DNA from: an uncultured virus (IMG/VR IMGVR_UViG_3300043803_001696)
Lineage: Duplodnaviria; Heunggongvirae; Uroviricota; Caudoviricetes
Direction: 5' to 3' (one strand)
Length of the DNA: 64,000 nt
IMG/VR virus record: IMGVR_UViG_3300043803_001696
A program made the translations under genes and the position numbers. Positions within the stretch are counted from its first letter, which is position 1, and each line of letters opens with the position of its first letter. Of the stretch, positions 40,236 through 64,000 are shown in pieces. Under the pieces are notes generated by a model. That model had not been told where the DNA came from. It ran no database searches and worked only from the letters and a program-made list of their open reading frames with translations.

Positions 40236-40991
40236 ATGGCCCGTCCAGATATTTCTTTTGAAAGCACCGAGCAGCAGTTGGAATACAGCCTGAAGGTGCT
40301 CACACAAGCAGGCTTCACTCCATTGCAAATTGAACGCATTCGCAATGAAGTGGGTGTTGGTAAAAACAAGATTCCTTACGACAAGGAAAGCACCGGCTGG
40401 CGACGGTTCATGGTGCAAGAACTTCTTGCTGCTCGCATGAGCAATAGGCAAATCTCTGAAGTGCTCAATCTGTCCAAGGAAACGGTTAATGCCGACAGGA
40501 AGCATAATCGTGACATTTGGACCCAGGAAATCCTTAAAAGTCAAGACACATGGCGGGCGCAATTACTTCGTGAACAGGCAGAGCTTAAAGAGATGGCAGT
40601 ACAAGGCTTTCATGCCAGCAAGAAAAAGCGCATTACTACTACCAACGATCGCACTAATGAAACCACCACGAGAACCGAGGAAACGGCTGGAGAAAGTAGC
40701 TTTTTGACAGTCGCAAAAGGCTGCCTTGAGCAGCAAGCTAAAATCCTTGGTCTGTTTGACATTAAGCCCCAGCAAGAAGAGAAAAGCGGCTACAAGAACT
40801 TTTTGGATAGTCTTTCGTCTCAAATTGCCAAGATCAAAGAGGCAGAACAAACAGCTACAGACCGTGCTGTGGCCATTGAAGCCAAGGCAGAATTTGATGA
40901 AAATGGCGAACCCACTGGTCAAAGCAGGCCAATGCTTTCAGCATACGTTGAAAACGACGAGGACGATGAAAGCGAAGATGATGAAGAATAA
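40236..40991 (+). CDS. HTH protein, candidate terminase small subunit
   Basis: MSNRQISEVLNLSKETVNAD HTH; helical core ending QQAKILGL; acidic tail. Confidence 0.55.
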   Translation: MARPDISFESTEQQLEYSLKVLTQAGFTPLQIERIRNEVGVGKNKIPYDKESTGWRRFMVQELLAARMSNRQISEVLNLSKETVNADRKHNRDIWTQEILKSQDTWRAQLLREQAELKEMAVQGFHASKKKRITTTNDRTNETTTRTEETAGESSFLTVAKGCLEQQAKILGLFDIKPQQEEKSGYKNFLDSLSSQIAKIKEAEQTATDRAVAIEAKAEFDENGEPTGQSRPMLSAYVENDEDDESEDDEE

Positions 40992-45506: not shown

Positions 45507-45812
45507 ATGACCACCTACCTCCTCGGCTACGCAACCAAAACCCCCATCGTGCGCGGTTTCCTTCGCCACGCTGGTAGCAGCATCGTCAGCGTGGAATTCG
45601 TCAAGGCTGACGGCAGCCTCCGCAAGATCCAATTCAATCCTTGCGACCGCCAGGAAATCAAAGGCACTGGCAAGCCCTCTACCAATGCTTCCATTGTTCG
45701 CTGCCGCGACTTTGCAGTGGCCCGCAAGGATGGGCAGGGCGCTTGGCGTTCCTTTGACTGCGAGCGTGTGGTGAGCATCACTGCCAAAGGCGAGACGCTG
45801 GTGCTGGCCTGA
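45507..45812 (+). CDS. SH3/WYL-like fold phage protein
   Basis: SVEFVKADGSLRK...WRSFDCERV. Confidence 0.7.
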   Translation: MTTYLLGYATKTPIVRGFLRHAGSSIVSVEFVKADGSLRKIQFNPCDRQEIKGTGKPSTNASIVRCRDFAVARKDGQGAWRSFDCERVVSITAKGETLVLA

Positions 45813-45861
45813 TCGTTTGTAAACAATTGTGACAGGGGCCAATCCAGGCCCCTCTGTCCTG

Positions 45862-45889
45862 TATTGTTCTCTCACGAGGCGCGAGCCTC
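45862..45889 (+). promoter_or_regulatory. early promoter + GCGA hairpin leader, copy 2
   Basis: TATTGT-6-ACGAGGCGCGAGCCTC. Confidence 0.75.
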
Positions 45890-45907
45890 TCCTTTCCTTT
45901 CCTTCCC

Positions 45908-46168
45908 ATGGCAACCATTCCCACTGTCCACCTCAACGGCACCGGCTTCACCGATCTGCGCGACGGCTACGCTGCTGCGTACGATGCCATTGACAAGGCC
46001 ATTGACGCCCTGGCGAAAGCCGAGCTCAATGGGAGGGATTTCTATCCGCAGGGCCCTGATGCCTACTATCACGCTCGCAAGGAGCGCGATCAGGCCTTCT
46101 ACCGCCTGCATGCTGTTCACGACTACGTGGGCGAGATGCTGGCTGGCATTTGCGACCAACAGCGCTGA
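45908..46168 (+). CDS. hypothetical phage protein
   Basis: PTVHLNGT...NGRDFYPQG. Confidence 0.7.
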   Translation: MATIPTVHLNGTGFTDLRDGYAAAYDAIDKAIDALAKAELNGRDFYPQGPDAYYHARKERDQAFYRLHAVHDYVGEMLAGICDQQR

Positions 46169-46199
46169 AGCGCCAAAGCGTGAAGCTTTGTAACGGGGC

Positions 46200-46228
46200 T
46201 TGACCTCAGGCCCCAAATGAACTAATTT
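46200..46228 (+). promoter_or_regulatory. sigma70-like promoter
   Basis: TTGACC-17-TAATTT. Confidence 0.6.
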
Positions 46229-46260
46229 TCCTTTCGTCAGCCAACTTTCCTCTCAAAGCC

Positions 46261-47262
46261 ATGAGCCACCAATTCACCTCCGGCGTGTTCTTCAACAATG
46301 AGCCCGCCTGGCACAAGCTTGGCACCGTCCTCGACGGCACCCAGCCCGCCCGTGAAGCTTTCGCCACTGCCAACGCAGACTGGGGCACCATCAGCACTCC
46401 CGTGTTTGATCCTGCTGGTGAGCCCATCCCTGGCTACCAGGCCATCACTCGCGGCGACACTGGCAATGTGCTCTCCATCCAAAGCGAAAGCTATGCCATC
46501 GTTCAAAACGAACAGCTCATCAGGGTGGCAGAAGCCCTGCATGAAGATGCAACGATGGATGCCGTGGTGGTGCTCAACGAAGGGCGCAAGGTTGCATTCA
46601 CCGCCAAGGTGAACAATTCCGAAGCTGATGTGCTCCCTGGTGACACCATCCACCAATACCTTGTTGGTTGCACTTCTCACGATGGCACTATTGCCTTCCA
46701 GGTGATGTTCAGCCCCATTCGTGTGGTGTGTCAGAACACGCTTTCCTACGCTCTGGGCCGTGCTGCTGCTGGTGCATCCACCAAGAAGATGCGCATTCGC
46801 CATACCAAGAACGCCAACGCTCTCATTGATCACCTCCCCTCGATCATTGATATGCAGCGCCAGCAGTTCACTGCGGGCATTGATGAGCTGAAGGCAATGG
46901 CCGCCAAGCCCTGCACTTCCGCTCTGTTCCGTCAGTATTGCGAAAGCGTGTTTGCTGACCAACTGGTGGGCATGACCAACGACAAGCGGGGCGACAAGAG
47001 CACTGCCCGCTCCAAGAAGCTGGAAGACCTCACTGCCTGGGACAACGTGGCCAACAAGTTCCATGGGGAAGGCATTGGCTTTGATATTCCTGGCGTGCAG
47101 GGCACCATGTGGGGCGCCTATCAAGCCATCACGGAGTATTTCTCGCACGATGCAGGCCGTGCCGTGGATTCCATTGATGCTGCCCGCCAGCGGCTGGAAA
47201 GCCTCTACTGGGGCACTGGTGCTGCCACCATCGCCAAGGCCCACTCCCTGGCTCTGGCCTGA
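46261..47262 (+). CDS. DUF932-family protein
   Basis: PAWHKLG, Y-x-IVQN, TSHDGT...SPIRVVCQNTL, IRHT, GTMWGAYQAITEY. Confidence 0.88.
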   Translation: MSHQFTSGVFFNNEPAWHKLGTVLDGTQPAREAFATANADWGTISTPVFDPAGEPIPGYQAITRGDTGNVLSIQSESYAIVQNEQLIRVAEALHEDATMDAVVVLNEGRKVAFTAKVNNSEADVLPGDTIHQYLVGCTSHDGTIAFQVMFSPIRVVCQNTLSYALGRAAAGASTKKMRIRHTKNANALIDHLPSIIDMQRQQFTAGIDELKAMAAKPCTSALFRQYCESVFADQLVGMTNDKRGDKSTARSKKLEDLTAWDNVANKFHGEGIGFDIPGVQGTMWGAYQAITEYFSHDAGRAVDSIDAARQRLESLYWGTGAATIAKAHSLALA

Positions 47263-47294
47263 GCGTTGCAATGGAGGGAAATGGGGCTGGGGGC

Positions 47295-47346
47295 TTGCGC
47301 TCCTGGCCCTTTTCGCTTACTGTTCTTTCAACGAGGCGCGAGCCTC
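47295..47346 (+). promoter_or_regulatory. early promoter + GCGA hairpin leader, copy 3
   Basis: TTGCGC-17-TACTGT-6-AACGAGGCGCGAGCCTC. Confidence 0.8.
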
Positions 47347-47361
47347 ACCGCCTTTCACTCC

Positions 47362-47667
47362 ATGGCTGCTTCCTTCTCCACCCTGACCGCCACTGAGCGT
47401 TGCCTTGTCGCGGCTCCCGCCAACGCATGGGAGGTGTGCGCCGCTGTTCACGACTTTGGCGGCATCGTTGACTGTGCAGTGCGTAGCTTCAACGGCAAGA
47501 AAGTGCTCAATGCCGTCAAGCTGGGCAACGACTGCTTCGACGTCACCCTGGTGAATCACAACCATCTCCAAGGCAGGCTTGTTAAGGGCTCCACCATTCG
47601 CTTCACCACCACCGGCACTTGGCTCAAGGAATGGCTGGAAGCAGTGGGTTCCACCGTCACTTTGTGA
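47362..47667 (+). CDS. hypothetical protein
   Basis: ATG directly after leader copy 3. Confidence 0.65.
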   Translation: MAASFSTLTATERCLVAAPANAWEVCAAVHDFGGIVDCAVRSFNGKKVLNAVKLGNDCFDVTLVNHNHLQGRLVKGSTIRFTTTGTWLKEWLEAVGSTVTL

Positions 47668-47706
47668 AGAAACAACGGAAGGGGCGCTTGGGCGCCCTTT
47701 CTGGCT

Positions 47707-47735
47707 TATTATTCCCTCAACGAGGCGCGAGCCTC
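47707..47735 (+). promoter_or_regulatory. early promoter + GCGA hairpin leader, copy 4
   Basis: TATTAT-6-AACGAGGCGCGAGCCTC. Confidence 0.8.
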
Positions 47736-47751
47736 TCCCTTCCTTCTTCCC

Positions 47752-47988
47752 ATGACCTCCTCCTTCATCCAAGACCAGCTCATTTCCATGGTTGCTCGCT
47801 TCATCTGCGAAGCCAAGGCTGGTGACATGCTCATGCTTCCTGCCATGGCAGCCCTCCACAAGCGTGAAGATGGCCGCATCTGCATGAGCCGCCGAGGAAG
47901 CCTGCCCATGCCACTGTGGGAGCCCCTGAGCCACGATATTGTTGCCACCATTGTTAGGTGGAGCAAAGAAGACCTGCAGGCCGCCTGA
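47752..47988 (+). CDS. hypothetical protein
   Basis: ATG after leader copy 4. Confidence 0.65.
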   Translation: MTSSFIQDQLISMVARFICEAKAGDMLMLPAMAALHKREDGRICMSRRGSLPMPLWEPLSHDIVATIVRWSKEDLQAA

Positions 47989-48226
47989 GCGGCCTCTCCC
48001 CCCTCCGCACCCTCCGAACCCTCCGCAGCCTCCCTAGAACCGTGCAAGACACCATCAACATCCTGGCCATCAGCAATAAAGGCCGTAGCCGCATCGGCAC
48101 CACCATCACCACTGCCATTGTTGAGCAGAATTTCCACGACAAGCTTTTCATTGTGCTTCCGCAGTTCAATCAATGCCGATGGATTAAAAGGAACAACGAT
48201 CCTGACTTTCGCATTATCCCTGAGGA

Positions 48227-48427
48227 TTGATCATGCCTTACTCTCTCGTTCTTGATGATGAATGGGGCATTCCATTCACTGCTAAAACCTTCGCTTCTAT
48301 TGAAGAAGTGCAAGATGAAATTAAGACAATGGACGAAGCATTGGACGATGCAGGACTAAGCGCCGCTCATGACATTCGTTGCATTATTGACCAGCTCAAA
48401 GAAATTATTGAGGCCGAAAAAGCCTGA
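48227..48427 (+). CDS. small acidic protein
   Basis: 66 aa. Confidence 0.55.
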   Translation: MIMPYSLVLDDEWGIPFTAKTFASIEEVQDEIKTMDEALDDAGLSAAHDIRCIIDQLKEIIEAEKA

Positions 48428-48432
48428 AACCC

Positions 48433-48738
48433 ATGCACACCATCCGCAACTACAACAGCAACGGGCCTTACTTTCCTTCCACCCAGGGAGTGTATCAAGC
48501 AGCGCGTCTCCGTGAATTGATCATGCACGTCAGAGTGTGCATGCAAGATGGAGACTACCAAATTGGCGTGTTTGATGATGATGGTCAATGCAAAGGTATT
48601 TGGACTGATGAAGCAGAGCCTGAGCCTGATGGTGAAGGAGGCATGGTTCTAGGAAGACCCGCTTATGTGCTATATCGCCCTGGTGACATCCCTGCAGGCT
48701 TGTGGAACTTGATGCTTTCTAAATTCAAGAGGGTTTGA
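48433..48738 (+). CDS. hypothetical protein
   Basis: 101 aa. Confidence 0.6.
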   Translation: MHTIRNYNSNGPYFPSTQGVYQAARLRELIMHVRVCMQDGDYQIGVFDDDGQCKGIWTDEAEPEPDGEGGMVLGRPAYVLYRPGDIPAGLWNLMLSKFKRV

Positions 48739-48740
48739 CC

Positions 48741-49154
48741 ATGGGAACCAATTATTATTTGCATGCTCCTAAATGCTTGCACTGTGGTAAAGAAGTAGAA
48801 GAACCATTGCATCTTGGCAAAAGCTCGGCAGGGTGGTGCTTTGGCTTGCACGTGTATCCCGAAAAAGATTTACACAATTGGGGCGATATGTGGAGCCATA
48901 TTCATTACAAGGTGGAAGAAAAAGATTATGAAATTAGAAACGAGTATGGAGATTCCATTGATCCTGCTCTTTTCTTTTCCATTGTTTGGGATAGAAAAGG
49001 ACGGTCGGAAAAGCTTTTCGACAAGAAATGGTTAGCAGATAATCACGCCACGATTGGCCCTTGTGGTCTCGCCAGGCATGCTTTGTATCCTGGCCATTGC
49101 ATTGGCCATGGTGGCGATGGCCCTTTTGATTACATCATTGGAGAATTCTCATGA
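48741..49154 (+). CDS. conserved phage protein
   Basis: MGTNYY...CxxC...LHLGKSSAGWCF...NEYG...GEFS. Confidence 0.75.
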   Translation: MGTNYYLHAPKCLHCGKEVEEPLHLGKSSAGWCFGLHVYPEKDLHNWGDMWSHIHYKVEEKDYEIRNEYGDSIDPALFFSIVWDRKGRSEKLFDKKWLADNHATIGPCGLARHALYPGHCIGHGGDGPFDYIIGEFS

Positions 49155-49330
49155 TTGACGATGATTCGCTTTCACACTTCGTTGAGGACTGGTGGAGAGG
49201 CATGGTGCTTTACGATCCTGACACTAAAGAATATGTGGACAATATCTTCAAAAACATTCACAAACAGCATTTTGTTGATTTTTTGCGGGATGCTTTAGTT
49301 GAACTTGGTGGCCAGTATGATTCTCATTGA
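49151..49330 (+). CDS. hypothetical protein (59 aa)
   Basis: Read by hand, ATGA-coupled. Confidence 0.5.
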   Translation: MIDDDSLSHFVEDWWRGMVLYDPDTKEYVDNIFKNIHKQHFVDFLRDALVELGGQYDSH

Positions 49331-49472
49331 TTATTTCTCAGAAGCTTGCTGCAAGGGCACAGAGCTTGTAGAGGGCTGGTACTGGTATGAAGACGATGGG
49401 GAAGAAGTGGGAGGGCCGTATAGAGACGAAAAAGCCGCCATTGCGGCGGCTCAATCAGGGCTTAAATGGTGA
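49317..49472 (+). CDS. hypothetical protein (51 aa)
   Basis: Read by hand: ...EGWYWYEDDGEEVGGPYRDEKAAIAAA. Confidence 0.55.
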   Translation: MILIDYFSEACCKGTELVEGWYWYEDDGEEVGGPYRDEKAAIAAAQSGLKW

Positions 49473-49488
49473 GGGTTCGGCTGGCTAT

Positions 49489-49557
49489 GTATTGGGTCCG
49501 GCTGAAAGTGTATTGGACCCGGCTAGAGGCGTATTGGGTCCGGGCAAAGGTGTATTA
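49489..49557. repeat. 21-bp period tandem repeat
   Basis: GTATTGGGTCCGGCTGAAAGT / GTATTGGACCCGGCTAGAGGC / GTATTGGGTCCGGGCAAAGGT / GTATTA. Confidence 0.85.
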
Positions 49558-49995
49558 GTGCGTTTGTACTATTTTTCTTGGTGAGAATGAGAATCGTTCT
49601 CAATAGTACTGGTGTACTGTAGTACTGGTGTACTACTGATACTGAGAATCATTCTCAATAATGGCATCCATAAGCTGAGCTTATCAATCCGGGCCGAACC
49701 ATCAGCATCCCTTATCTTATAAGGCATCCTGATCATTCCAGGCCAAACAATCAGCCCAGCTTATCAGCGCCCGACTAGTACGTTTGCACTTGTGCCGATT
49801 GGCGGATTGGCACAATCCCCGGATTCCCGACCGACTCGCCGTAGTATTGCGAAATGTGACAATCGCTTGCCCATGGCAGTGCATTATCACGATGCCGTTA
49901 TGTCCCAGTTCTTTACCCTTAGGAGCGCTGTTGTTAGCTATACCTTTCGGCCTTTCCAGTTCTTTATACTGCAGCGAACCATAAGCAGCGCTGAT
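49557..49995. promoter_or_regulatory. cluster of Fur-, LexA-, LysR- and HLR1-like boxes (left)
   Basis: TGAGAATn[AG]TTCTCA x2; AGTACTGGTGTACT x2 plus 2 variants; AT[AC]AG[CG]-N3-[CG]CT[TG]AT x5; ATTGCGAA-at-GTGACAAT. Confidence 0.7.
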
Positions 49996-50378
49996 CAGCG
50001 CTGAGAGGCTCCCAGGAGCCTCTGTGAGGCGTTTCAGGCCTTCCCGGCTATCCCCACACCTAGAAGCGCTTTCCGCAGCTTTCCAGATGGGGCAAGGCGT
50101 TTCGGCCGTTACGGTTCGCCTCGCTACTTTTTGGGCAATGGTTGACAGGATGGCGGGAGGCATGATTTGCGCGCGCATGCGCGTTCTTTCCTTCCCTGCA
50201 GGATCCTCCCAACCACGGGCGCCAGACAATGGGCCAAACCATGAAAGCGGCGCAGTGCGCCGCATTGTGTGCCGGTGCTGGAGGCGGCACAGCATGCCGC
50301 GCCCTGGTCCGTTCTGGCGGCAACAATGGGCCCATGGCAGGGAAGCGATTCCCGGCCGATTCCCTCCGCTTTCCTCTC

Positions 50379-50699
50379 ATGACCTTCTGCAATCGCCCGG
50401 ACGCCTTTGAATTTCTGTCTGCCGTATCACGTGGCCAGAAACGTGGCACCGTGAAAGCCATTAAGGCAGCGGCCAGAACCCTCGGGCTGATCGACAGCAT
50501 CTCCCACGCACAGCACGGCTACCACGTAAGCAAGGGATGGGAGATCAGCCCTTGCCAGACCCTGAGGGACGTTGCTGAGGCTCTCCTATGGTCGTTTGCT
50601 TCTGCGCCCGTTCTGCCTGCTGAAAAGGCGCGTGCACTCTATCGGCAGACCGTGAAAGGTCACCGCGTGGCGTGGGATGAACCGTCCGAGAACTTCTGA
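50379..50699 (+). CDS. hypothetical protein
   Basis: ATG after GGGAA-GCGA-TTCCC hairpin and pyrimidine leader. Confidence 0.6.
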   Translation: MTFCNRPDAFEFLSAVSRGQKRGTVKAIKAAARTLGLIDSISHAQHGYHVSKGWEISPCQTLRDVAEALLWSFASAPVLPAEKARALYRQTVKGHRVAWDEPSENF

Positions 50700-50744
50700 G
50701 CCTTTCTTTACTTTCCTTTCTTTCCCTTTCTTTCCTTCTGAATC

Positions 50745-50897
50745 ATGACAAGTCTCACCCCCGGCCAACTCATCGAACTGATCGCCCTGGTGGATGACAA
50801 CAACCAGTTCAATGATGAAGAGGATGCTTTCAACTATTGGCAGGAGGTTTCCGATGCGTTGAAGGCAGATTATCGCAAGTGGTTTGAAACTTTCTAG
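50745..50897 (+). CDS. small acidic protein (50 aa)
   Basis: Read by hand: MTSLTPGQLIELIALVDDNNQFNDEEDAFNYWQEVSDALKADYRKWFETF. Confidence 0.6.
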   Translation: MTSLTPGQLIELIALVDDNNQFNDEEDAFNYWQEVSDALKADYRKWFETF

Positions 50898-50928
50898 CCT
50901 TTCTTTCTTTCCTTCTTTCTTTCTGATC

Positions 50929-51624
50929 ATGAAACTTTCTTCCCTTTCTTTTCACCTTTCTACTGTCAGCTCTAACGCTAAGACTGGGCCCATAGCCGTT
51001 AGCACGTCCTCCCGCGCCACGTGTTCTCCTTCCTGTCCTTTCTTTCAGAACGGATGCTACGCAGAATCGGGCCCACTTCTCCTACATTGGCGAAAGGTTA
51101 CCGAAGGTCTGCGCGGTGTTACATTCTCGGAATTCCTTTCTAGTCTTCTCAGCTTAGAAAGTGGGCGTCTGTTTCGCCACAATCAGGCTGGAGATTGCCC
51201 GCATACAAACGGCAGAATCAGCCGCACATTCATCCGCCGCATGGTAGCAAGTGTGCAACACTTAAAGGCCTTCACCTACACTCACCATGACATAAAGTTG
51301 GGAGAGAATCTTCAGCTTCTGAAATACGCTAACCGCAACGGTTTTACAATCAATCTCAGCACTGAGTCAGAAACAGCCGCCGATGATGCAATCGCCGCCG
51401 GATTACCTGCCGTGATGGTAGCTAACAGCGATGAAGAGCGCACAACGTGGCACACGCCGGCCGGGAACACTGTTCTAGTGTGTCCTGCGCAACGTTCAGA
51501 CACTACCACTTGCGCCGATTGCAAGCTGTGCCATCATCGCGGCCGCAGGGTAGTGATAGCTTTCCTCGCCCATGGCACTGGAAAGAAGAAAGCTAACGCC
51601 GCAATCGCTCCCACTAGCCTATAG
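50929..51624 (+). CDS. Cys-rich phage protein (GP88-like, possible Fe-S enzyme)
   Basis: SNAKTG...TCSPSCPF...GCYA, FRHNQAGD, YTH, NLS, CPAQ...CADCKLC, FLAHG. Confidence 0.7.
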   Translation: MKLSSLSFHLSTVSSNAKTGPIAVSTSSRATCSPSCPFFQNGCYAESGPLLLHWRKVTEGLRGVTFSEFLSSLLSLESGRLFRHNQAGDCPHTNGRISRTFIRRMVASVQHLKAFTYTHHDIKLGENLQLLKYANRNGFTINLSTESETAADDAIAAGLPAVMVANSDEERTTWHTPAGNTVLVCPAQRSDTTTCADCKLCHHRGRRVVIAFLAHGTGKKKANAAIAPTSL

Positions 51625-51638
51625 GCTGCGAAACGATC

Positions 51639-51673
51639 GGGCCCTTACTTTATAGTGAGGGCCCCTTTCTTTC
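51639..51673 (+). terminator. putative terminator
   Basis: GGGCCCTTAC-tttata-GTGAGGGCCC then pyrimidines. Confidence 0.55.
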
Positions 51674-51695
51674 TATGGTTGGGAGACAATTAGCC

Positions 51696-51782
51696 TATTG
51701 AGAGGCGTTCTCAATAAGACATTTTTATCAGCATTGCTTATCAGTTGCAAAATGTTACAGGGAGCAGTAGTACGGGCGTTCT
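51696..51782. promoter_or_regulatory. cluster of Fur-, LysR-, HLR1- and LexA-like boxes (right)
   Basis: TATTGAGAggcgtTCTCAATA; ATCAGCattGCTTAT; GTTGCAAA-at-GTTACAGG; AGTACgggcGTTCT. Confidence 0.7.
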
Positions 51783-52049
51783 ATCGCAGGGGGTCGGGGA
51801 TACCCAAATTAGGAGCGACGTAATTTTCAATCCATTTTTTCCCCATATGCCACTTCCCAGTGCGCACTGACCGAACGATCTAGAGCTGAACGATGGGGAG
51901 TGAGGTCACCAAGATTGTTCGTCGTCTTATGGTTCTTTCAGGATGAGAGCTATGGCAAGGAGGACGAAAGTAAGGAGGATTAGGAGAGCAATAATTACGC
52001 TCCAGGAGGGATCAGTTGGTGAGGCGAGGGGATGAAGCATGAATTTATG

Positions 52050-52348
52050 AAGGCCGCTTGCGAGAGGGTAGCTCCCCCAGGAGCGTCATTCATGCGGCCT
52101 TAGTCTTACTATTGTCTCATTTGAGACTGTTTTAAGACTGGCGATAGCTACGCACAATATGGGCGATCAAAAGAAAAGAAGAAAGCGAAAGGAGGTGGTA
52201 AGGAAGGAGCCCAGGAATGTACCGCCTTGGGGGCTCAGCTCGTAGGGCTCCTAGCAAAGGCTTCTTAAAAGAAGGGAGTTGAGAGGAGGATGGTGGAGCT
52301 GAGCCGCTTGTTATCTATCGCCTTGGGGGCTCCTGCTCGTAGCGGCTC
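52050..52348. repeat. structured CCCA-hairpin element, copies 2 (+), 3 (-) and 4 (-)
   Basis: 52050-52101, 52205-52252 and 52301-52348; 8-bp outer stems; CGCCTTGGGGGCTC is identical in copies 3 and 4. Confidence 0.75.
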
Positions 52349-52543
52349 GCGGAGGCTTGAAAGCTGCTCGTAATGGAGCACACGCTACGCCTATTGTTAT
52401 TGTAGAGCTAAATCTTATGAGTCTTAAATGAGACTCATGCTATAGCAAGGAAGTGACAGTTAGGAAAGTGTCTTTTATTGGCAAATCAAGACAAAAGCAA
52501 GGAAAATAAGCGCTGTTAGCATTACTTTCCCTTCTCCGCAACC

Positions 52544-52783
52544 ATGGGATATAACAACAGTCGCACGGGCTATGCCACAGTCGTCAGCTTTTGGAGAGTG
52601 TTCGTCTCTTCAGAAAGAGCATGGCCTCGCACCATTCGGGACTTGCCTGCCATGGTCAAGCCCCCTAAGGAGCAGTTCTACCGTCCACGCGTGGCAGCGC
52701 ATAGCGGCCATCAAATTGACCTCCTGGATTGGCACTTATCTTTAGATGAGACGCCACCGGCATGCTGCTATCCTGATTGGTAG
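52544..52783 (+). CDS. hypothetical protein
   Basis: 79 aa, pyrimidine leader. Confidence 0.5.
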   Translation: MGYNNSRTGYATVVSFWRVFVSSERAWPRTIRDLPAMVKPPKEQFYRPRVAAHSGHQIDLLDWHLSLDETPPACCYPDW

Positions 52784-52796
52784 TTCCTCGTGTCCC

Positions 52797-53159
52797 ATGA
52801 GCTTCGCCAGTTCCCTGCTCTTCTCCATTGCAATGGATGCCTGCAAGGAAGACTTAGACGAAGCGCGAGAGCGTCTTGAAGCTTTTGAACTATGTAATGA
52901 CAAGGTGACTGCTGCTGCGCTTGGCTATTTGCTTGCTAAGCAAGAAGAAAAAAGGAAGGAAGAGCAGGAAGAATGGATTTATGACCGCTTGTGTTCCATC
53001 ATTGATAGTTGCATGGAGTGTGATGGCACCTACTACACAGAAAGTGCAGTGGAAGCCATTTTTGAAGTGTTTTATGATTGGTTAATTCACCACACTGAAA
53101 AGGACTGCGAAAAAGAACTTACCAAATTGTTTAAGCCTTATATTGTGCAAAAGCACTAA
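52797..53159 (+). CDS. hypothetical acidic protein
   Basis: ORF 52746-53159; likely start MSFASS. Confidence 0.6.
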   Translation: MSFASSLLFSIAMDACKEDLDEARERLEAFELCNDKVTAAALGYLLAKQEEKRKEEQEEWIYDRLCSIIDSCMECDGTYYTESAVEAIFEVFYDWLIHHTEKDCEKELTKLFKPYIVQKH

Positions 53160-53221
53160 TTGCTACCATTTTCTTTTTCCATAGCCTTTAGCCTTAAGGA
53201 GCTAGTCTCTTTAGGGCTTTT

Positions 53222-53410
53222 ATGTGGGATGATCTTCCTAGCCCCTTTATGGTGGGAGCCATTAAGGTGTGGCCGGTCCATTCCAGGCCAGATTTTTCTT
53301 GGTTTGTAGCTTACGAAGGTAAGCCGTTCTATTTCAAAACCAAGAGCAGCGCCATGCTCTTCGCCAGGGACAAGCAGTCCATGGAAGACCCAGACGGGCT
53401 GTGCGACTAG
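53222..53410 (+). CDS. hypothetical protein
   Basis: 62 aa. Confidence 0.55.
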   Translation: MWDDLPSPFMVGAIKVWPVHSRPDFSWFVAYEGKPFYFKTKSSAMLFARDKQSMEDPDGLCD

Positions 53411-53513
53411 CGCCAATTGTGCAAAGATGTTGTGATTAAAGCTGGCACGATGGAAGTTTGAGCTAGGCTTTTTCCTGTTGTCACCAGCCCGCATGAGCGG
53501 GCTTTTTCGTCTC

Positions 53514-54959
53514 ATGAAGCTGAAGGAAGGAGCCAAGGCAGACAAGATTGCTCGCACAGGAAGAGTCCAAAATTGGATGGATGATACCAATGGACGCTTG
53601 CCCGTATCTTGCACAGTTTTTGTAGTTGAAGATTCAATGGAAGGGGAGGAAGGCATTGAAGCATCTTGGCGCTTTGTTTCCCATGGTCTGCGTAATGGTG
53701 CAGGAGTTGCTGTTCATTTATCTAATTTGCGCGGCAAAGGGCATGAAAATGGCAAAGGGCTTGTAGCAAGTGGTCCTGTAAGTTTTGGCAAGATTTATTC
53801 CACTCTCAATGAAATTCTTCGTCGCGGCGGCGTCTATAAAAACGGGGCTGTAGTATTGCATCTTGATTATGACCATCCTGATGCGCTTGATTTCCTGCAA
53901 GCTTCTAGGCAAGAACTTCCATGGGTGAAACGTTGTCTAAACGTAGACGAAAATTTCCTTGAACGTTCTTCTAAGGAGCTGATTGATACTCTCCTTAAAG
54001 GCATTGGCACTGGCGACATCTGGCTTAATAAGATTCGCTACAACGAAAAAGGCGAGCGCATTCGTGCCAATGTTTGCCTGGAAGTGTATCTCCCCCATCG
54101 TGGCACCTGCCTGCTGCAGCATGTCAATATGGGCGCCTGCTCCATTGAAGACGTGACAGGGGCCTTTGTGGAGGGCATGGAGCAGCTCTGTGAGCTTCAT
54201 GGCAAAACGGGCGTGGGCGCCACAGGCGAATATCTTCCTTCTGTGATTGATAGACAAGTGGGGCTTGGCATGCTTGGGCTTGCTAATTTCCTTTCCCTCC
54301 ATGGCATTTCTTATGCTGACTTCGGCAAAGCCCTGAAAGCCTTCAATCAAGAAGATCCGCGAGACTGGTATGAAATTATGGACAAGCCAGTGGGTAATGC
54401 CGTATTTGCCATCTTCCAAGGTATTAGTGGTGCTGCTGAAGTGGCTCGTGAAGCTGGAATGGAACGCGCCTTCTGCATTGCTCCTACAGCCTCTTGCTCC
54501 TACCGCTATTTAGATTCCAAAGGCTTTACGACAGCCCCTGAAATCGCCCCTCCCATTGCTCGTTTAGTTGATCGGGATAGTGGCACTTTCGGCGTGGAAA
54601 GCTTTGACTATGGGGAAGTGGAAATTGCTGCTGAAGTGGGCTGGGACAATTACAAACTGGTCGCAGATGAGCTGGTACGTCTGTATCAAAACACTGGTCT
54701 TTTCCATGGCTATTCGTATAACTCATGGAGCGACATTGTTATTTACGACGAGGCCTTCTTGAAAGATTGGCTAGAATCTCCTCAGACAAGCCTCTACTAT
54801 TCGCTGCAAGTTCTCCCGGACACGCAACGAAAAGATGATGCTTACGCTGCCTTAGACGACGAATTTAAGACCATGTTTGGACTCAGCGATACTGAGCCCT
54901 TAGGAGAGACTGTCTCTTGTGGCATAGATGCTGGTTTCTGCGCTGCATGTGCAGAGTGA
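53514..54959 (+). CDS. nrdA: ribonucleotide reductase large subunit (compact cyanophage-type class I alpha)
   Basis: LPVSC, ANVCLE (NxCxE), IAPTASCS, TSLYY tyrosine pair, C-terminal CAAC. Confidence 0.88.
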   Translation: MKLKEGAKADKIARTGRVQNWMDDTNGRLPVSCTVFVVEDSMEGEEGIEASWRFVSHGLRNGAGVAVHLSNLRGKGHENGKGLVASGPVSFGKIYSTLNEILRRGGVYKNGAVVLHLDYDHPDALDFLQASRQELPWVKRCLNVDENFLERSSKELIDTLLKGIGTGDIWLNKIRYNEKGERIRANVCLEVYLPHRGTCLLQHVNMGACSIEDVTGAFVEGMEQLCELHGKTGVGATGEYLPSVIDRQVGLGMLGLANFLSLHGISYADFGKALKAFNQEDPRDWYEIMDKPVGNAVFAIFQGISGAAEVAREAGMERAFCIAPTASCSYRYLDSKGFTTAPEIAPPIARLVDRDSGTFGVESFDYGEVEIAAEVGWDNYKLVADELVRLYQNTGLFHGYSYNSWSDIVIYDEAFLKDWLESPQTSLYYSLQVLPDTQRKDDAYAALDDEFKTMFGLSDTEPLGETVSCGIDAGFCAACAE

Positions 54960-55046
54960 CCCATCCTTCTCCTCCTTTTGTTGATGGGGCCGCTTTGACG
55001 GCCCTCTTCTGTCTGTTTTCATTCCTTTCCATCGCGCTTTCTAATA

Positions 55047-55781
55047 ATGACCGTCCTTGAAAAGAGCCCCTATTCAGCAATGATCGCCAAGAAGCGCCCC
55101 TGGCAAGCCACGCCAGTGGACAATTCGCCTGTGAAGGAAGGCGCTGAATCCACGCTTTTCAAGACCATTGCTTTGCGCCACCTTGAACTGCCCGTGAAGG
55201 ACTTGCTTGAGCAAGGCTTACAGAAGGAACTGCCTTCCACTCCTGGCATCATTGAGGCGTTGCGCTCCAACCAGAAGGATGAAGAGCGTCATGATGAAGC
55301 GCTGAACTATGTTGCTGCCGCCTATGGCACTGACGAGAAGGCAGAGCGAGAAGTGCAAAACATCTTGAAGGTGTGGATGGAGCACCCCGCCCATCCAATT
55401 CATAAAGTGTCCATTATTGAGCGTTCTATCTTCTTCGTTGCCCTGCCGTTCTTCCGCTTCAATGGCAACATCGGCATGCGCACGGTGTCAGCAGACATTA
55501 GCCGTGACGAGCAAGTGCATTGTGGCGTTCATGGTTTGGTGGCCAAGGAACTGGGCGAAACGGAAACGGAAAGCCTTAATAAGCTGCGCATTGCCACTGC
55601 TGGCTGGCTGTTTGAGCACTTGGGCAAGAGCGATGATCAATGGCTCGACAAAAACGCTTGGATGCAGCGCTCTGAGCGCCTGTTCTGGGAAGGAAAGGCT
55701 TCTGGCATGGAAGACTCCCGTCGTAGCCGTCAAATCGCGTTCTTTGAAAGTTCAAACGTAAATCTTCCATGCTATGGTTGA
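55047..55781 (+). CDS. nrdB: ribonucleotide reductase small subunit (ferritin-like beta)
   Basis: DEERH and DEQVH metal-ligand motifs, C-terminal FFE...Y; directly after alpha. Confidence 0.8.
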   Translation: MTVLEKSPYSAMIAKKRPWQATPVDNSPVKEGAESTLFKTIALRHLELPVKDLLEQGLQKELPSTPGIIEALRSNQKDEERHDEALNYVAAAYGTDEKAEREVQNILKVWMEHPAHPIHKVSIIERSIFFVALPFFRFNGNIGMRTVSADISRDEQVHCGVHGLVAKELGETETESLNKLRIATAGWLFEHLGKSDDQWLDKNAWMQRSERLFWEGKASGMEDSRRSRQIAFFESSNVNLPCYG

Positions 55782-55835
55782 CATTTGATTCCCTTCTTAT
55801 GCTATGATTACGGGGTTAACCACCCCGTTTTTTTT
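55778..55835 (+). promoter_or_regulatory. promoter overlapping a terminator-like hairpin
   Basis: TTGACA...TGcTATGAT, then ACGGGGT-taacc-ACCCCGT-T run immediately before ATG. Confidence 0.65.
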
Positions 55836-56477
55836 ATGGAAGAAATCTGGAAACCTATTCCTGGCTACGAAAATTTATACGAAGCCTCAAGCTTGGGTAA
55901 TATTAGATCTGTAGACAGGACTGTTTTAGATGAGCGAAATCAGAAGCAGCGCACGCGCACATTCAGGGGGAGACAATTGTCCCCAAATATCAATAAAGAT
56001 AGCGGCCGTCATTCTGTCATGCTTTCTAAAGAAGGAAAGACAAAAAGATTCACAGTCGCTCGTTTAATTTGCCTGGCTTTTCATGGCTTGCCTCCAGAAG
56101 GGAAAAATTTAGTATTGCATTATGACGACATTCATACAAATAATATGCCAGAAAACTTAAGGTGGGGCAATCACTTGGAAAATCTAGAAGATTGCGTTCG
56201 CAATAGAGGCTCTCATCCCCGTTACATTGATGGCAGAAGCAATCGCAAGAGAGGACCAGTCGGGGGCGCCATCTTAAATGAGTATCAAGTAAGAGTGTTG
56301 AGGCGACTTCCTGACCTACGCTCACTGCGAGGGTTGAGGGAAGACCTGGCCGAAGAGTGGGGAGTCGCTCCTTCTAGCATATCCAGCGCCAAATACAAAC
56401 AAACAGCGTGGAACACGCTATCTCCTGTGCCGCTATGGGAAATCGCCAACGTAAATCTTCCTTCCTACGGCTCTTGA
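55836..56477 (+). mobile_element. NUMOD4-HNH homing endonuclease
   Basis: EIWKPIPGYENLYEASSLGNIRS (NUMOD4); VARLICLAFHG...VLHYDD..TNN..ENLRWG (HNH). Confidence 0.92.
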
Positions 56478-56483
56478 CGCTGT

Positions 56484-56522
56484 GGGGCTTCCGCTATTGC
56501 TACATCGGAAGCCCCGCTTTTC
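56484..56522 (+). terminator. terminator-like hairpin
   Basis: GGGGCTTCCG-12 nt-CGGAAGCCCC-gcTTTTT. Confidence 0.6.
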
Positions 56523-56580
56523 CCGCATAGAAAGCCCCGTCTTTCTTGTCTAGAGTTGATTAAAGACTTCTTCAAAAGCC

Positions 56581-56793
56581 GTGGGCGAGCGCAGGACGTT
56601 TGACACCCCCATTCGCTGCAAATGGAACGCGCCCATTCATAATTTATTGAAAGCCATTGATAATCACACTGAATTATTTCTTCTCCATGGAGACCCTTGG
56701 CATGCCAAAAAGGCAGCAGAACTCAGGGCTTATGTTCACGAACTAAAAACTTGGATTCACAAAGAAGAACAAAATACCCTTGGTCAGATTTGA
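56581..56793 (+). CDS. hypothetical phage protein
   Basis: TPIRCKWNAPIHNLLKAIDNH...LRAYVHELKTWIH. Confidence 0.65.
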   Translation: MGERRTFDTPIRCKWNAPIHNLLKAIDNHTELFLLHGDPWHAKKAAELRAYVHELKTWIHKEEQNTLGQI

Positions 56794-56848
56794 ACTGACA
56801 CTTGTCTGAGCTTAAATCAGATGCCTCTTCCTATTGGGCTACAAGGGC
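56775..56848 (-). tRNA. trnL: tRNA-Leu(UAA), short variable loop, no encoded CCA
   Basis: Full cloverleaf: GCCCTTG/CAAGGGT-A, D GCC/GGC, anticodon TCTGA-ttTAAgc-TCAGA, T GTCAG-TTCAAAT-CTGAC. Confidence 0.9.
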
Positions 56849-56852
56849 GTGA

Positions 56853-57006
56853 GACAGAACTTATCCCGCATTAGGGAATTAACAGGTGCGGCCTGTAGTT
56901 CTGTCAACAAGAACCATGAATGCTTCAACTCATCCACGGCATCTCCGAAACCAGCATTGACGAGGATGCTGGTGCCGTTGGCCAACGGGCTCCTGCAGGA
57001 AGCCCC
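56853..57006 (-). ncRNA. candidate structured RNA upstream of the tRNA
   Basis: Multiple stems and two potential pseudoknots; extended -10 TGcTAAGAT at 57018-57010. Confidence 0.55.
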
Positions 57007-57012
57007 AAAATC

Positions 57013-57141
57013 TTAGCAGCGCCAGCTCCAAAACACAACCGCTCCTTCTGAGCACAATTGCTTATGTACGTGCCTTGCCTCTCGCAGGGGCACTACAACT
57101 TCCCTTTTCTGACCATGAAGGATAAACAACAGTCCAACCAT
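57013..57141 (-). CDS. hypothetical protein (42 aa)
   Basis: Read by hand: MVGLLFILHGQKREVVVPLREARHVHKQLCSEGAVVFWSWRC. Confidence 0.45.
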   Translation of the reverse strand: MVGLLFILHGQKREVVVPLREARHVHKQLCSEGAVVFWSWRC

Positions 57142-57143
57142 GG

Positions 57144-57374
57144 CTAGATGTCATAAAGCTTGCATCGCGGAGAATCAGGGAACAGCGAACATTCCTTGTC
57201 CCACCAATCCCCTCTGTCTTTCTCTCCATTGAGCCAATAATATTGCTGCATGTGGTGAGCGTAGGCCTTTTCAGCCAACTTGCGATCTTCCATGCTCACG
57301 CCAGGCTCTTGCATGGCATAAGCGGCTTCAATGGCAGCGTGAAACGCCTCTTCAGCAGCCCGAGAAAGAACCAT
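57144..57374 (-). CDS. hypothetical protein with CP12-like C-terminus
   Basis: Ends WWDKECSLFPDSPRCKLYDI, resembling the C-x8-C-x-x-Y-D tail of CP12. Confidence 0.5.
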   Translation of the reverse strand: MVLSRAAEEAFHAAIEAAYAMQEPGVSMEDRKLAEKAYAHHMQQYYWLNGEKDRGDWWDKECSLFPDSPRCKLYDI

Positions 57375-57398
57375 GGTGGAAACGCAAGTACGGCTAGT

Positions 57399-57587
57399 CT
57401 ATTCAACGCTTTCTTTCTTTGCAAGTTGCTCCACCTTTAACTGCTGCTGCAGCTTTTTCAAGCGTGGCAGGAGCGAGGGTTCGTAAAAATGATCTGCTGC
57501 TAGCAGTTGAAGAGCAGTTTGCCTATCAGCTTCTAACAATGCAACAAGATACGACACCTCCTTCAAGGAAAGATAAAAATGCTTCAT
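57399..57587 (-). CDS. hypothetical protein
   Basis: 62 aa downstream of the terminase. Confidence 0.5.
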   Translation of the reverse strand: MKHFYLSLKEVSYLVALLEADRQTALQLLAADHFYEPSLLPRLKKLQQQLKVEQLAKKESVE

Positions 57588-57635
57588 TTTTCAAAAAAGT
57601 CGATAATTCTAAATTCCTGAAAATTCTAGTGGTGA

Positions 57636-59012
57636 TCAGCGTACCAGACTGTTCAGCCAATCAATATCATTATCCTTAGAGGCTTCAAGAATGGCACCAG
57701 CCAAGGCAAAAGCGTAGTCATCTACTCCCACTTCTTTACCACCAGTTACTGCCCATTGCCCACTGCTTCTGTAGATAACACTGAGGTTTTTCAGTTGCTT
57801 GACGGCTTTCTCGTGAGGATACATTTCAATAAGGCCAGCATTAAAGAGCTCCTTCATCTTGCTAAATGCTTTCATCTTGGTGCTAACGGACCAAGCAAGT
57901 TCAGCAATGGGGAAGTCTTTAGACATGCTTTGAATGGTGCCAGAACTGTTGAACTGGTCAAGCACAATACTTTGAAAATCGTAAATGCGGTGGTGCTCCC
58001 TAATCCATTCTTCTACCTTGGCAATATTCACTTCTTTCTTTCCGCCAATATCAAAATCAGGCTCAAAGGCGTGAAATTTGTCCACCACTAGGCGCTCACC
58101 TTCGTAATGCACAATGCAAGCAGTGTAATCATCTCGACCCACGCCACCACGAGCAGGGTCAAGGGCCAATACATATGTTCCCATTAGTTCACGCTGCGGA
58201 AACAAAATGCCCCTTTCTTTATTCACGGAAATGTCAACAATCTCCGCTGCCAACAATGCAGAGTTGTTCTTGGCAAACTGAGCACCATATTCCACCCAGA
58301 ACTTATCAGGGTCGCGTTTTAGTTCAGCTTCAAGGAACGGACACCCCCATGGCAAATTTGGATTGACTGTCCAAGTGGCCAGGTTTTCCGCTTGCATGAA
58401 CGGGTAGTCACCAGACGTGGCTTCGCAATAGTGTTGATAGAACAAGCCATCAGTGAGCCATGGCGAAGACAGTTCCAGGATGCGACCGTGCTTGCCAAAC
58501 TGAGCGATGGAGGGAGACAGGGCTTGGTAGATGGCACCGGCGCCACGGTTGGCATCGCCTTCAATGGCAAAGCTCAGCTCGTCCATGATTAGCATCACCA
58601 CGGCTTTACCACGAGAAGCACGAGCTGATGCGGGAATGGCCTGGAACACGCAATTATTGCTCACTTCAATCTCAGTGGCCGTCTCCCTAGTGATCTCACC
58701 CACCAAGGGAGAGTCCATCAACAATTGACGGATGTTGTTCAGGGCAAGCTTGGCCTGGCTTTGATCGTTTGCAATGGTGAGGATGTAAAACTTTTCCGAC
58801 TTTCTTACGCGCCTCTTGTATTGATCTTCCAGAACAAAGCAGGCATAGAGCGCTGCAATGGAGGCCATGAGCGTCTTACCACAGCGTCGGCCTAGTGCCC
58901 ACACAGCGTGCGTCTTGTCTCCACCAAAATAAGAATCAAGAATGCGCTTCTGCTCAGGCCACAACTCTAATTGCAGAACTAGCTTGGCAAATTCACTGCA
59001 TTTAAGCTTCAT
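57636..59012 (-). CDS. terL: terminase large subunit
   Basis: GRRCGKT Walker A, LIMDE Walker B, SSP motif III, ALDPA and DDYAFA nuclease aspartates. Confidence 0.92.
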   Translation of the reverse strand: MKLKCSEFAKLVLQLELWPEQKRILDSYFGGDKTHAVWALGRRCGKTLMASIAALYACFVLEDQYKRRVRKSEKFYILTIANDQSQAKLALNNIRQLLMDSPLVGEITRETATEIEVSNNCVFQAIPASARASRGKAVVMLIMDELSFAIEGDANRGAGAIYQALSPSIAQFGKHGRILELSSPWLTDGLFYQHYCEATSGDYPFMQAENLATWTVNPNLPWGCPFLEAELKRDPDKFWVEYGAQFAKNNSALLAAEIVDISVNKERGILFPQRELMGTYVLALDPARGGVGRDDYTACIVHYEGERLVVDKFHAFEPDFDIGGKKEVNIAKVEEWIREHHRIYDFQSIVLDQFNSSGTIQSMSKDFPIAELAWSVSTKMKAFSKMKELFNAGLIEMYPHEKAVKQLKNLSVIYRSSGQWAVTGGKEVGVDDYAFALAGAILEASKDNDIDWLNSLVR

Positions 59013-59494
59013 GCAAGTTCATCCATGCTGCGCAACTTTTCTTTAGGGACAAAATATGCAGGGCGTCCACGGGCAGGATCAGCCCAATATTTCTCCTCCA
59101 TCGCCTCTTCTCCATAGCACCAGCCATGGATGAGGGTGGTCTTGTCTTCAATCGTAACCAAGACAAACTTCTTTTTCGGACTTTCGTTTTTTTGGACGAT
59201 CAAGTCATATTTATGCTTGCTTCTGGTTTTTACGTCAATGCCAGGCAGATCATCAGAGCCGCGCTTAGCTTCAGTTTCTTGATAAAGCAAAGGTTTCATG
59301 CCCAGATAAGAGGCCACTGCCATTTCCCCCGCCGCGCCCAGTAGATGAATATCCAGAGCCTTGCTTCCCTTCCAGGCTCCGCCATTACGCCCGCGCAAGC
59401 CTTTGCTTTCATTAAAGCCCTGGCGCCTCAGTCCTTCCTCCATGGCCAATTGACGTTCTTCATCAGTGAAGACAAATTCAATGGGAGTGGGCAT
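59009..59494 (-). CDS. PD-(D/E)XK-like nuclease-fold protein
   Basis: GAAGEMAVA...D...IDVKT...FVLV...GW; likely ATG 59494. Confidence 0.6.
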   Translation of the reverse strand: MPTPIEFVFTDEERQLAMEEGLRRQGFNESKGLRGRNGGAWKGSKALDIHLLGAAGEMAVASYLGMKPLLYQETEAKRGSDDLPGIDVKTRSKHKYDLIVQKNESPKKKFVLVTIEDKTTLIHGWCYGEEAMEEKYWADPARGRPAYFVPKEKLRSMDELA

Positions 59495-59560
59495 GATTAA
59501 ATGGACATCGTGGCTACTGTAGCCACCAGTTAGCATGGATGCAACACATAATGCGGGAAA

Positions 59561-62273: not shown

Positions 62274-62293
62274 TAAGGCAAAGCTTGAAGCCC

Positions 62294-63749: not shown

Positions 63750-64000
63750 CGCACTCGCTCTTCAATTAAGTAGATGCCTTGAATTTTGCCTGTGTAGCAA
63801 GACAGAAGATTGTCTTGCTGTTTGAATAATGGCGCTCGATAGGCACTGGCATTACTTCGCTTGCTTTTCATTGAAAGCACAATGCTGTGCTGAGAGAGAT
63901 GGTTTGAAAAATCAGGCCAGTAATGACAAACGTGATTTTCTGCTTTACGTCTAAGCTGTTCCAACTGTTCCCTTGATGGTTCTTCGTTGACAGGAGCGAC
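63728..64000 (-). CDS. C-terminal part of a probable FAD-dependent oxidoreductase (truncated by window)
   Basis: Frame open to the window end; ends SCYTGKIQGIYLIE; context next to epimerase and isomerase. Confidence 0.55.
   Translation of the reverse strand, partial: VAPVNEEPSREQLEQLRRKAENHVCHYWPDFSNHLSQHSIVLSMKSKRSNASAYRAPLFKQQDNLLSCYTGKIQGIYLIEERVRQMLDGL

Follow-up and report, generated by a model that had tools for sequence, protein, structure and literature searches.

Why should a phage carry, at two places on its genome, tightly packed DNA boxes that resemble the binding sites of several unrelated host regulators? The question arises from a 64,000-nt stretch of an uncultured virus of the Caudoviricetes (IMG/VR record IMGVR_UViG_3300043803_001696; hereafter the window, meaning the whole stretch), in which an original prediction had read two such arrays around a 2-kb island as a landing pad for host proteins at the genome end. 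In this study, we confirmed that the two clusters exist, the left one at 49556-49995 and the right one at 51699-51783. Both hold Fur-like boxes (A), LexA-like boxes (B) and LysR-like dyads (C), together with an HLR1-like repeat (D). When up to two mismatches were allowed on a 72.8-kb whole-genome model, the A, B and C boxes were confined to the two clusters, with the exception of an A-like site at 30079. Comparison of box density with the genome background, a check that the original prediction had itself proposed, showed by shuffles and by the genome-model scan that the boxes are concentrated in the clusters and do not stand at background level. We hold with moderate confidence that the clusters form a fast-evolving accessory control region, to which global regulators of the host are recruited and which gates a variable gene cassette and the genes of ribonucleotide reductase (RNR).

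The window represents the genome of a siphovirus of ~72.8 kb, circular or permuted relative to the window, whose nearest named phage is Synechococcus siphovirus S-CBS4 (66% identity in the portal and 61% in the terminase). The nearest record, G001 (48,637 bp), corresponds to window positions 49722-64000, followed by 8,796 bases absent from the window and then by positions 1-25562. The stretch was found in 24 lake-water metagenome runs, all of them as contigs, in which molecule ends and RNA are invisible; a pile-up of molecule ends, which contigs would not reveal in any case, was not reported.

The B boxes provide a convincing link to the host. The cyanobacterial LexA box is a 14-bp palindrome (RGTACNNNDGTWCB / AGTACWNWTGTACT; PMC3091678), and exact matches to it occur at 49605 and 49621, as predicted, and elsewhere in the 64 kb only at 12633. 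The five strand-matches compare with a mean of 0.23 in 100 shuffles, none of which reached five. The two exact sites lie in abutting boxes at 49604..49635, where AGTACTGGTGTACT occurs twice as a direct repeat, 16 bp apart. Three variants accompany them; scored against TAGTAC-N4-GTACTA, those predicted near 49557 and 49777 were located at 49556..49571 (one mismatch) and 49776..49791 (two mismatches), and the third stands in the right cluster at 51768-51783 (one mismatch). The phage boxes AGTACTGGTGTACT (window) and AGTACGTTTGTACT and AGTACGCCTGTACT (relatives) are comparable to the published picocyanobacterial recA boxes CGTACGTTTGTACT (Synechococcus CC9902) and CGTACGCCTGTACT (WH8102), and the relatives' box GGTACAAATGTACT is comparable to the published lexA box GGTACAAATGTATT (Table 1, Li et al., PMC3091678). 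Across the phage family, 13-14 of the 14 positions of the B boxes are identical to Synechococcus and Prochlorococcus recA and lexA boxes, which bears out the suggestion that the boxes look like host-regulator sites and not chance resemblances. Judged by sequence, the B boxes are thus strong candidates for the host SOS (LexA) box type.

For the other three types, the patterns were derived from the same sites that they count, and the counts given here are partly circular. The Fur-like scores of 15/19 at 49583 and 16/19 at 49638 were reproduced exactly and are the two best plus-strand scores in the window; they correspond to the inverted repeats TGAGAAT-C-GTTCTCA (49588..49602) and TGAGAAT-C-ATTCTCA (49643..49657), the latter perfect and followed by ATAA. 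Four matches scoring at least 15 were counted over the two strands, including one at 57656 (minus strand) outside the clusters, against a mean of 0.17 in 30 block shuffles, and the A-like box of the right cluster (51699-51713) scores only 11/19. The A box GAGAAT-C-ATTCTC has the same layout as GATAAT-C-ATTATC, from the 19-bp Fur consensus of the original prediction, with one change per half-site, and hybrid boxes with one canonical and one A-type half occur in the relatives L018 (TGATAATGATTCTCA) and L073 (TGAGAATCATTATCA). The core ATTCTCAATAA of the box at 49643..49657 occurs in the Anabaena FurA consensus as given in PMC4005646, and the full 19-bp Anabaena consensus yielded no match of 14/19 or better. 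With up to one mismatch, the A pattern was found three times against 1.98 expected, a count that is not rarer than chance, so that the placement alone is non-random. A scan of a genome collection for the A-box word TTGAGAATNATTCTCAA returned no cyanobacterium among the 80 matches listed of at least 121 stretches, an uninformative outcome. Taken together, the A boxes are probably Fur-family sites.

The LysR-like palindromes ATMAGS-N3-SCTKAT were present at all five predicted positions, 49670, 49701, 49719, 49750 and 49981, and the only other exact copy in the window stands at 51727; with up to one mismatch there are 10 matches against 2.16 expected. The first four dyads (49670..49764) are spaced by 31, 18 and 31 bp, the fifth (49981..49995) completes the left cluster and the sixth (51727-51741) belongs to the right one. 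All six fit the T-N11-A feature of LysR-type sites, a feature too loose for naming a regulator. The HLR1 element consists of two 8-nt direct repeats (G/T)TTACA(T/A)(T/A), 2 nt apart (PMC6525291). The HLR1-like direct repeat predicted near 49846 was found at 49847..49861 (plus strand), but it scores just 12/16, and its counterpart at 51745-51759 scores 13/16; the 15-nt word TTGCRAAATGTKACA is exact at these two places only. An RpaB/HLR1-type repeat is therefore weak in the window, and clear in the relatives described below. That the right cluster (51699..51783, plus strand) packs one box of each type proved correct, in the order A-like, C, D/HLR1-like and LexA-like. The block around its LexA box, GGGAGCAGTAGTACGG, is kept in nine relatives, and a search for RNA structure at the right cluster found covariation in 0 of 12 predicted pairs.

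A further element had been overlooked. Three to four 21-bp direct repeats (49478..49556, plus strand; core GTATTGGGTCCGGC; spacing 21 and 21; TRF period 21, 3.3 copies) abut the left cluster and start six bases past the stop codon of p57, a conserved 57-aa gene (49299..49472, plus strand) that is the last of the plus-strand early block. The array is unique on the genome model, where one weaker core-match pair was seen at 41160/41187. A p57 homologue stands directly left of the box arrays in 8 of 11 tabulated relatives (all those in which p57 has a match), as it does in 20 of 61 loci, and the gene order around it is conserved. Across IMG/VR, p57 lies beside five of eight stretches with Pho arrays and 14 of 18 with C dyads, both described below. 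Profile searches gave no family match for p57 itself.

The relatives were gathered with an RNR-protein search, the best 80 of 253 related viral stretches being dereplicated to 61. Repeats of the 21-bp type were found in 24 of the 61 (25 sequences counting the window), in three to six copies with a 21-23-bp period. The slot, taken as the 1,050 bp around these repeats, makes up 4.1% of all bases and contains 31 of the 54 LexA-like boxes, 48 of the 63 C dyads and 17 of the 35 copies of a palindrome, TATGCGCATA. Two or more B or C boxes were present in 18 of the 33 dereplicated relatives with at least 5.5 kb upstream of RNR, and in five near-complete relatives (CheckV 92-100%) the LexA-like boxes were concentrated at one syntenic place. 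The C dyads of relatives come in pairs 18 bp apart, repeated every 49-50 bp, in the same 18/31-bp rhythm as in the window and with up to nine per phage (L088); of the 18 IMG/VR stretches with a C-dyad pair, 16 belong to this phage family. HLR1-like sites with up to two mismatches numbered 41 in 646 kb, and 15 of them are no more than 200 bp away from a B or C box, a zone of 2.9% of the sequence. The association is real, but the relatedness of the sequences makes its p-value too strong. Within the slots of relatives the HLR1 scores rise to 14-16/16, and L049 has three perfect units there.

Some sister phages fill the same place with Pho boxes. The cyanobacterial SphR/PhoB Pho box is CTTAACCT with 3-bp linkers (PMC1906773), and it recurs at an 11-bp period in 13 (L051), 20 (L053) and 31 (L084) copies. 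In L217, ~19 strict copies span 380 bp and two LexA boxes sit among them in phase, and in L053 the last Pho box stands 10 bp before TACACT, matching the spacing of PhoB promoters (PMC1906773). Four perfect phased Pho boxes occur in eight IMG/VR stretches, seven of which are this slot in this family. The slots of other lineages hold 4-10 copies of other units, 21 to 27 bp long.

The locus is conserved and at the same time fast-evolving, the slot being kept in many relatives while its content changes. The window and L013 share 97% RNR identity and 88-100% identity in the flanking genes, whereas the arrays and the whole island differ. In the right clusters of L013 (4215-4235) and L015 (4030-4050), a perfect palindrome, GATACG-N4-CGTATC, replaces the Fur-like box. 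Because it stands at the same position of the right module, box types are swapped module-wise between close relatives. As a separate observation, the palindrome TATGCGCATA, often followed by GCATA, lies directly left of LexA-like boxes in the slots of L016, L022, L032, L033, L039, L044, L061, L062, L065, L070 and L088 and is absent from the window. The S-CBS4 record (NC_016766.1) contains none of the A-D boxes and no tandem arrays. This record is cut where the slot would lie, 69213-69420 being joined to 1-212; its homologue of p101 (window 48433-48738), which is unannotated, extends to the record's final base and ends 5 nt into its beginning, and its p62 homologue (27-212) carries an in-frame stop. 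The junction may represent an assembly gap or errors. S-CBS4 was not used as proof that the slot is dispensable, a true deletion and an assembly gap being indistinguishable. From these comparisons, we give an even chance to the view that the clusters constitute a real, conserved and family-specific control region of S-CBS4-like lake cyanosiphoviruses, an intergenic slot that starts at the p57 stop codon.

What might such a region do? In the reading that we favour, dimers of host LexA, Fur and RpaB would bind their sites on the incoming phage DNA, and the bound regulators would set the transcription level of the cassette and of the genes to its right, so that accessory gene expression would be tied to host DNA damage, iron status and light. 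Two copies of the module flank the variable cassette, and the right copy faces nucleotide-metabolism genes. The layout of the locus is consistent with this: on the plus strand, the early genes up to p57 are followed by the left cluster, the cassette, a terminator-like hairpin, the right cluster, ~760 bases without a plus-strand open reading frame (ORF), and then p79, p137, p62 and RNR. Both clusters have the same orientation ahead of plus-strand genes, the right one being a shortened copy of the left, 2.1 kb rightward, and the hairpin separates the cassette from the right module. The original prediction regarded stacked iron, SOS and light regulators as something that a single promoter has no need of. 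Known host promoters contradict this: the isiA promoter of Synechocystis carries an HLR1 that ends 5 nt from a Fur box, and an HLR1 is also present in the promoter of lexA (PMC6525291). Because these promoters combine such regulators, their stacking is not odd.

Several observations weigh against control of local promoters. The distance to the next start codon is 230-380 bp for the left cluster, and the right cluster is separated by 760 bp from the nearest plus-strand ORF that follows; the claim that neither cluster stands directly before a gene is right as to these long distances, but both clusters do lie in long intergenic stretches upstream of plus-strand genes. A promoter scan performed at chance level (four promoter-like sites against 4.4 expected), with none directed rightward at a cluster, so that no promoter was placed with confidence. 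The right module has a candidate -35 TTACAG / -10 TACTAT, which L063 and L081 do not share. The HLR1-like sites of the window are weak (12-13/16), and sites with up to three mismatches are scattered genome-wide (19 sites). The 21-bp repeats and C dyads are almost restricted to this family (16 of 18 IMG/VR stretches for the C-dyad pair) and, having no known host partner, may bind a phage protein. Finally, the site numbers in sister phages (13, 20 and 31 Pho boxes; nine C dyads) go far beyond the need of a promoter.

Such numbers bring in the alternative that the arrays act by occupancy and not through local promoters, which we regard as possible though rather improbable. As a DNA sponge, multiplying phage genomes would draw LexA, Fur and RpaB (and PhoB in sister phages) off host promoters and thereby rewire stress regulons; in the landing-pad variant, the bound proteins would form a bulky complex with a structural role, for which the original prediction had named shielding, ratcheting or the pausing of injection. 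The titration and landing-pad ideas of the original prediction stay alive through the sister-phage arrays, including the LexA boxes within a Pho array, and are weakened by the modest site numbers of the window. In favour of occupancy are the Pho arrays of L051, L053, L084 and L217 and the dyads of L088, all above what any promoter needs, the mixing of several regulator types in one array, the recurrence of this slot among IMG/VR stretches with four perfect phased Pho boxes (seven of eight) and the fast array turnover between near-identical phages such as the window and L013. Set against this, the window has only five LexA-like, three Fur-like and two HLR1-like sites, which is within the range of a complex promoter; titration of PhoB, an activator, would bring the phage no obvious benefit; tandem repeats expand by slippage without selection; and the record of the cultured relative S-CBS4 is free of such arrays. 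A broader version, to which we attach only tentative weight, sees a 'regulator trap', a single non-coding slot anchored by the 21-bp repeats and loaded in each lineage with a different mix of host global-regulator sites, acting as sponge or sensor. Its contents would be LexA, Fur and RpaB sites in the window and PhoB with LexA sites in sister phages.

It is unlikely that the locus is a replication origin, in which the 21-bp repeats would serve as iterons for a phage initiator and the host-regulator boxes would gate firing. The repeats are phased direct repeats (3.3 copies), as iterons are, and they persist in three to six copies of a 21-23-bp period in 24 of 61 relatives amid varying surroundings. 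The locus is unique on the genome model, and the phage encodes a primase-helicase (36532-38499). Response-regulator sites gate some bacterial origins, and the two-site origins of some satellite phages offer a parallel to two clusters that share boxes a few kb apart. On the other hand, an iteron origin would have an adjacent AT-rich element and initiator gene, and we found neither: no AT-rich unwinding stretch lies beside the repeats, and no initiator-like gene adjoins them, the neighbouring ORFs being without family match and the replication genes 11 kb away. Moreover, the right cluster lacks the 21-bp repeats, the GC skew does not turn at the locus, and the S-CBS4 record has the same replication genes and no such repeats (a possible assembly gap).

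Decidedly unlikely, in our view, is that the boxes as a whole are operators of phage-encoded helix-turn-helix (HTH) regulators, with a convergent or partial likeness to host boxes. Candidate regulators exist: a 99-aa protein with an HTH_3 domain (E 1.5e-9), whose gene lies outside the window (19311-19610, minus strand, of G001), and a 251-aa protein with a weak LuxR-type HTH (40236-40991). The C dyads and 21-bp repeats are family-specific, and some box types swap as immunity operators do, the A box being exchanged for TATGCGCATA or GATACG-N4-CGTATC. Yet the B and Pho boxes are exact matches to the host consensus and do not vary among relatives that share only 62-80% protein identity; the phage ORFs scanned contain no LexA, Fur or response-regulator domain, nor was a LexA domain found in G001; and both HTH proteins have homologues in S-CBS4, whose record has no boxes. 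For the C dyads or the repeats alone, phage-encoded regulators may well be the binding partners.

The weakest proposal, that the clusters lie at the genome end as a packaging site, injection stop or end protection, is very improbable, as single contigs from three runs span both clusters (X4 45705-53409, X1 49252-51947 and X12 49392-51801) and the slot is internal in all five near-complete relatives, at least 1.9 kb from either contig end, with ends that all differ. The contigs give no sign of a fixed physical end of the virion DNA of the T5 kind at this place, and the terminase genes are 6-8 kb away. Some contig ends speak for the proposal: G001 begins inside the left cluster at 49722, contigs of L052, L073 and L085 end at or near the arrays, a contig end lies within 6 kb upstream of RNR in 42 of 80 loci against 22 downstream, and the S-CBS4 record is cut exactly at the slot position. 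In three runs, loose ends at 49619 and 49660 reveal another genome that shares only a 42-bp LexA-plus-Fur block and has other flanks; because of this sharing, assemblies can break here without physical ends. Since this mosaic sharing accounts for the breaks, the modest enrichment of contig ends was not taken to mark termini. Terminase typing for the packaging mode gave no solved relative and only distant named relatives. Annotators should be warned that such repeat-rich stretches break metagenome assemblies and that contig ends there are not genome ends.

The cassette (50379..51624, plus strand) consists of three ORFs, each behind a CT-rich leader: a 106-aa ORF (50379-50699; 156 aa if started at 50229), a 50-aa ORF (50745-50897) and a DUF7227 protein (50929-51624; PF23872, E 2.4e-80). 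The 156-aa form is confined to near-identical phages and had no match in the phage collection, no solved relative was found for DUF7227, and the island had no match in NCBIfam. Several profile searches detected no DNA-binding domain in the three ORFs, and PADLOC gave a single match to this cargo that looks sub-threshold, a JetC-like assignment of the 50-aa ORF (E 0.0043, 12.8 bits). The hairpin closing the cassette (51639..51664, plus strand) has an 11-pair stem with seven GC pairs and a T-rich tail. The CT-rich leaders (50694-50744, 50897-50928 and 51655-51672; CTTTCTTTC... ending TGA(A)TC) stand directly before island start codons in place of a Shine-Dalgarno sequence, and similar CT tracts occur in relatives (TRF matches such as CTTTCCTTT).

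Right of the right cluster lies a 37-aa membrane-type ORF (51927..52040, minus strand; phrog_814, E 5.8e-9). This hydrophobic ORF would be antisense to rightward transcription starting at the right cluster. Its frame is open in L013 and also in L015, where it starts with GTG, and it may form part of a small membrane-protein/antisense pair. The candidates for control by the right cluster are p79, p137, p62 and the RNR large subunit (52544..54959, plus strand). In the gap before p79, the non-coding stretch 52187-52440 (plus strand) shows 73-80% nucleotide identity in at least nine relatives whose proteins are no more alike, and it carries a duplicated module (CGCYTKGGGGCTC...CTCGTAGSGGCTC). RNAalifold predicted an 8-pair helix there, with double changes in 5 of 18 pairs that come mostly from two poorly aligned rows; the stretch may be a structured RNA or a leader. 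Rfam gave no match on 49000-53600, which includes this stretch, and blastn of the region against the phage collection gave none either.

Elsewhere the window encodes a tape measure (3192-7802), a tail tip protein, the portal (59561-61606), the large terminase (57636-59012, minus strand), two RNR subunits (53478-55781), ThyX, a dCTP deaminase and a Sak-type annealing protein. Domain scans of the phage ORFs found no integrase or repressor module. Two HNH homing-type endonuclease genes (55785-56477 and 30591-31094; NUMOD4+HNH_3 and HNH_5) adjoin the RNR genes or sit in the nucleotide-metabolism block, and L034 has an inserted HNH gene that separates p57 from the arrays. In a protein of the tail-fibre region (23979-25136), four stretches consist of collagen triple-helix repeats (PF01391, E 3e-41). 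The contig end of G001 at window position 25562 falls 67 bases inside the next ORF (25495-27144), likely a strain-variable zone.

Host-regulator sites on phage DNA are known in themselves. The phage GIL01 has a promoter, P1, with SOS boxes operated by host LexA (PMC4551915), and like GIL01, the present phage carries several host LexA boxes per control region, as if the host SOS repressor were used instead of, or beside, one of its own. Unlike GIL01-type temperate phages, which leave lysogeny, it has no integrase or repressor module that we could find and its cultured relative forms plaques; its LexA boxes are, in addition, mixed with Fur-like, HLR1-like and unknown boxes and present in two copies. 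The proximity of RpaB (light/redox) and Fur (iron) sites within a few bases recalls the cyanobacterial isiA and lexA promoters (PMC6525291). Those promoters have one or two sites of each kind at a mapped start, whereas the phage slot has up to dozens, plus 21-bp repeats and C dyads. HLR1 in cyanophages receives mention in PMC6525291. As in Pho control, the slot of sister phages shows exactly the 8+3-bp rhythm of Pho boxes. Pho boxes in cyanophages reportedly featured in work on how phages respond to P stress (PMC10976474). Whereas about three boxes make up a Pho promoter, the sister arrays have 13-31 with LexA boxes embedded, and the window itself has none.

Phages of Alphaproteobacteria carry CtrA boxes in what has been called 'lytic deferment' (PMC9437464). 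They resemble the present case in being lytic phages with host global-regulator sites that time development by host state, and differ in using one regulator at scattered promoter sites, where here one hypervariable slot gathers the sites of several. In plasmids and plasmid-prophages, iteron arrays bind or titrate the element's own initiator, titration being an accepted mode there. The slot shares with them phased direct repeats in a non-coding stretch and two arrays flanking a gene block, but its sites are mostly of host-regulator type and no Rep gene lies between the arrays. In lambda, OL and OR are twin operator clusters flanking a gene block, and the two clusters described here, ~2 kb apart, in the same orientation and with the same operators, flank genes in a similar way; unlike in lambda, variable cargo and no repressor gene was found between them. 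Among open-access papers and preprints, none was found that describes cyanophage arrays of LexA, HLR1 or Fur boxes.

Picocyanobacteria manage with very few transcription factors, and it is of interest how light, iron, phosphate and DNA damage are sensed by the phages that infect them. The phage family described here appears to concentrate the sites of just those regulators in one exchangeable slot beside accessory and nucleotide-synthesis genes. Provided that the regulators do bind there, this would give a compact and testable model of how a lytic phage reads the state of its host or disarms its stress responses, and the family would offer natural 'decoy arrays', graded from one to ~30 sites, for separating titration from local control. 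Should the sponge prove true, it would represent a hijack of host stress signalling not yet described for phages.

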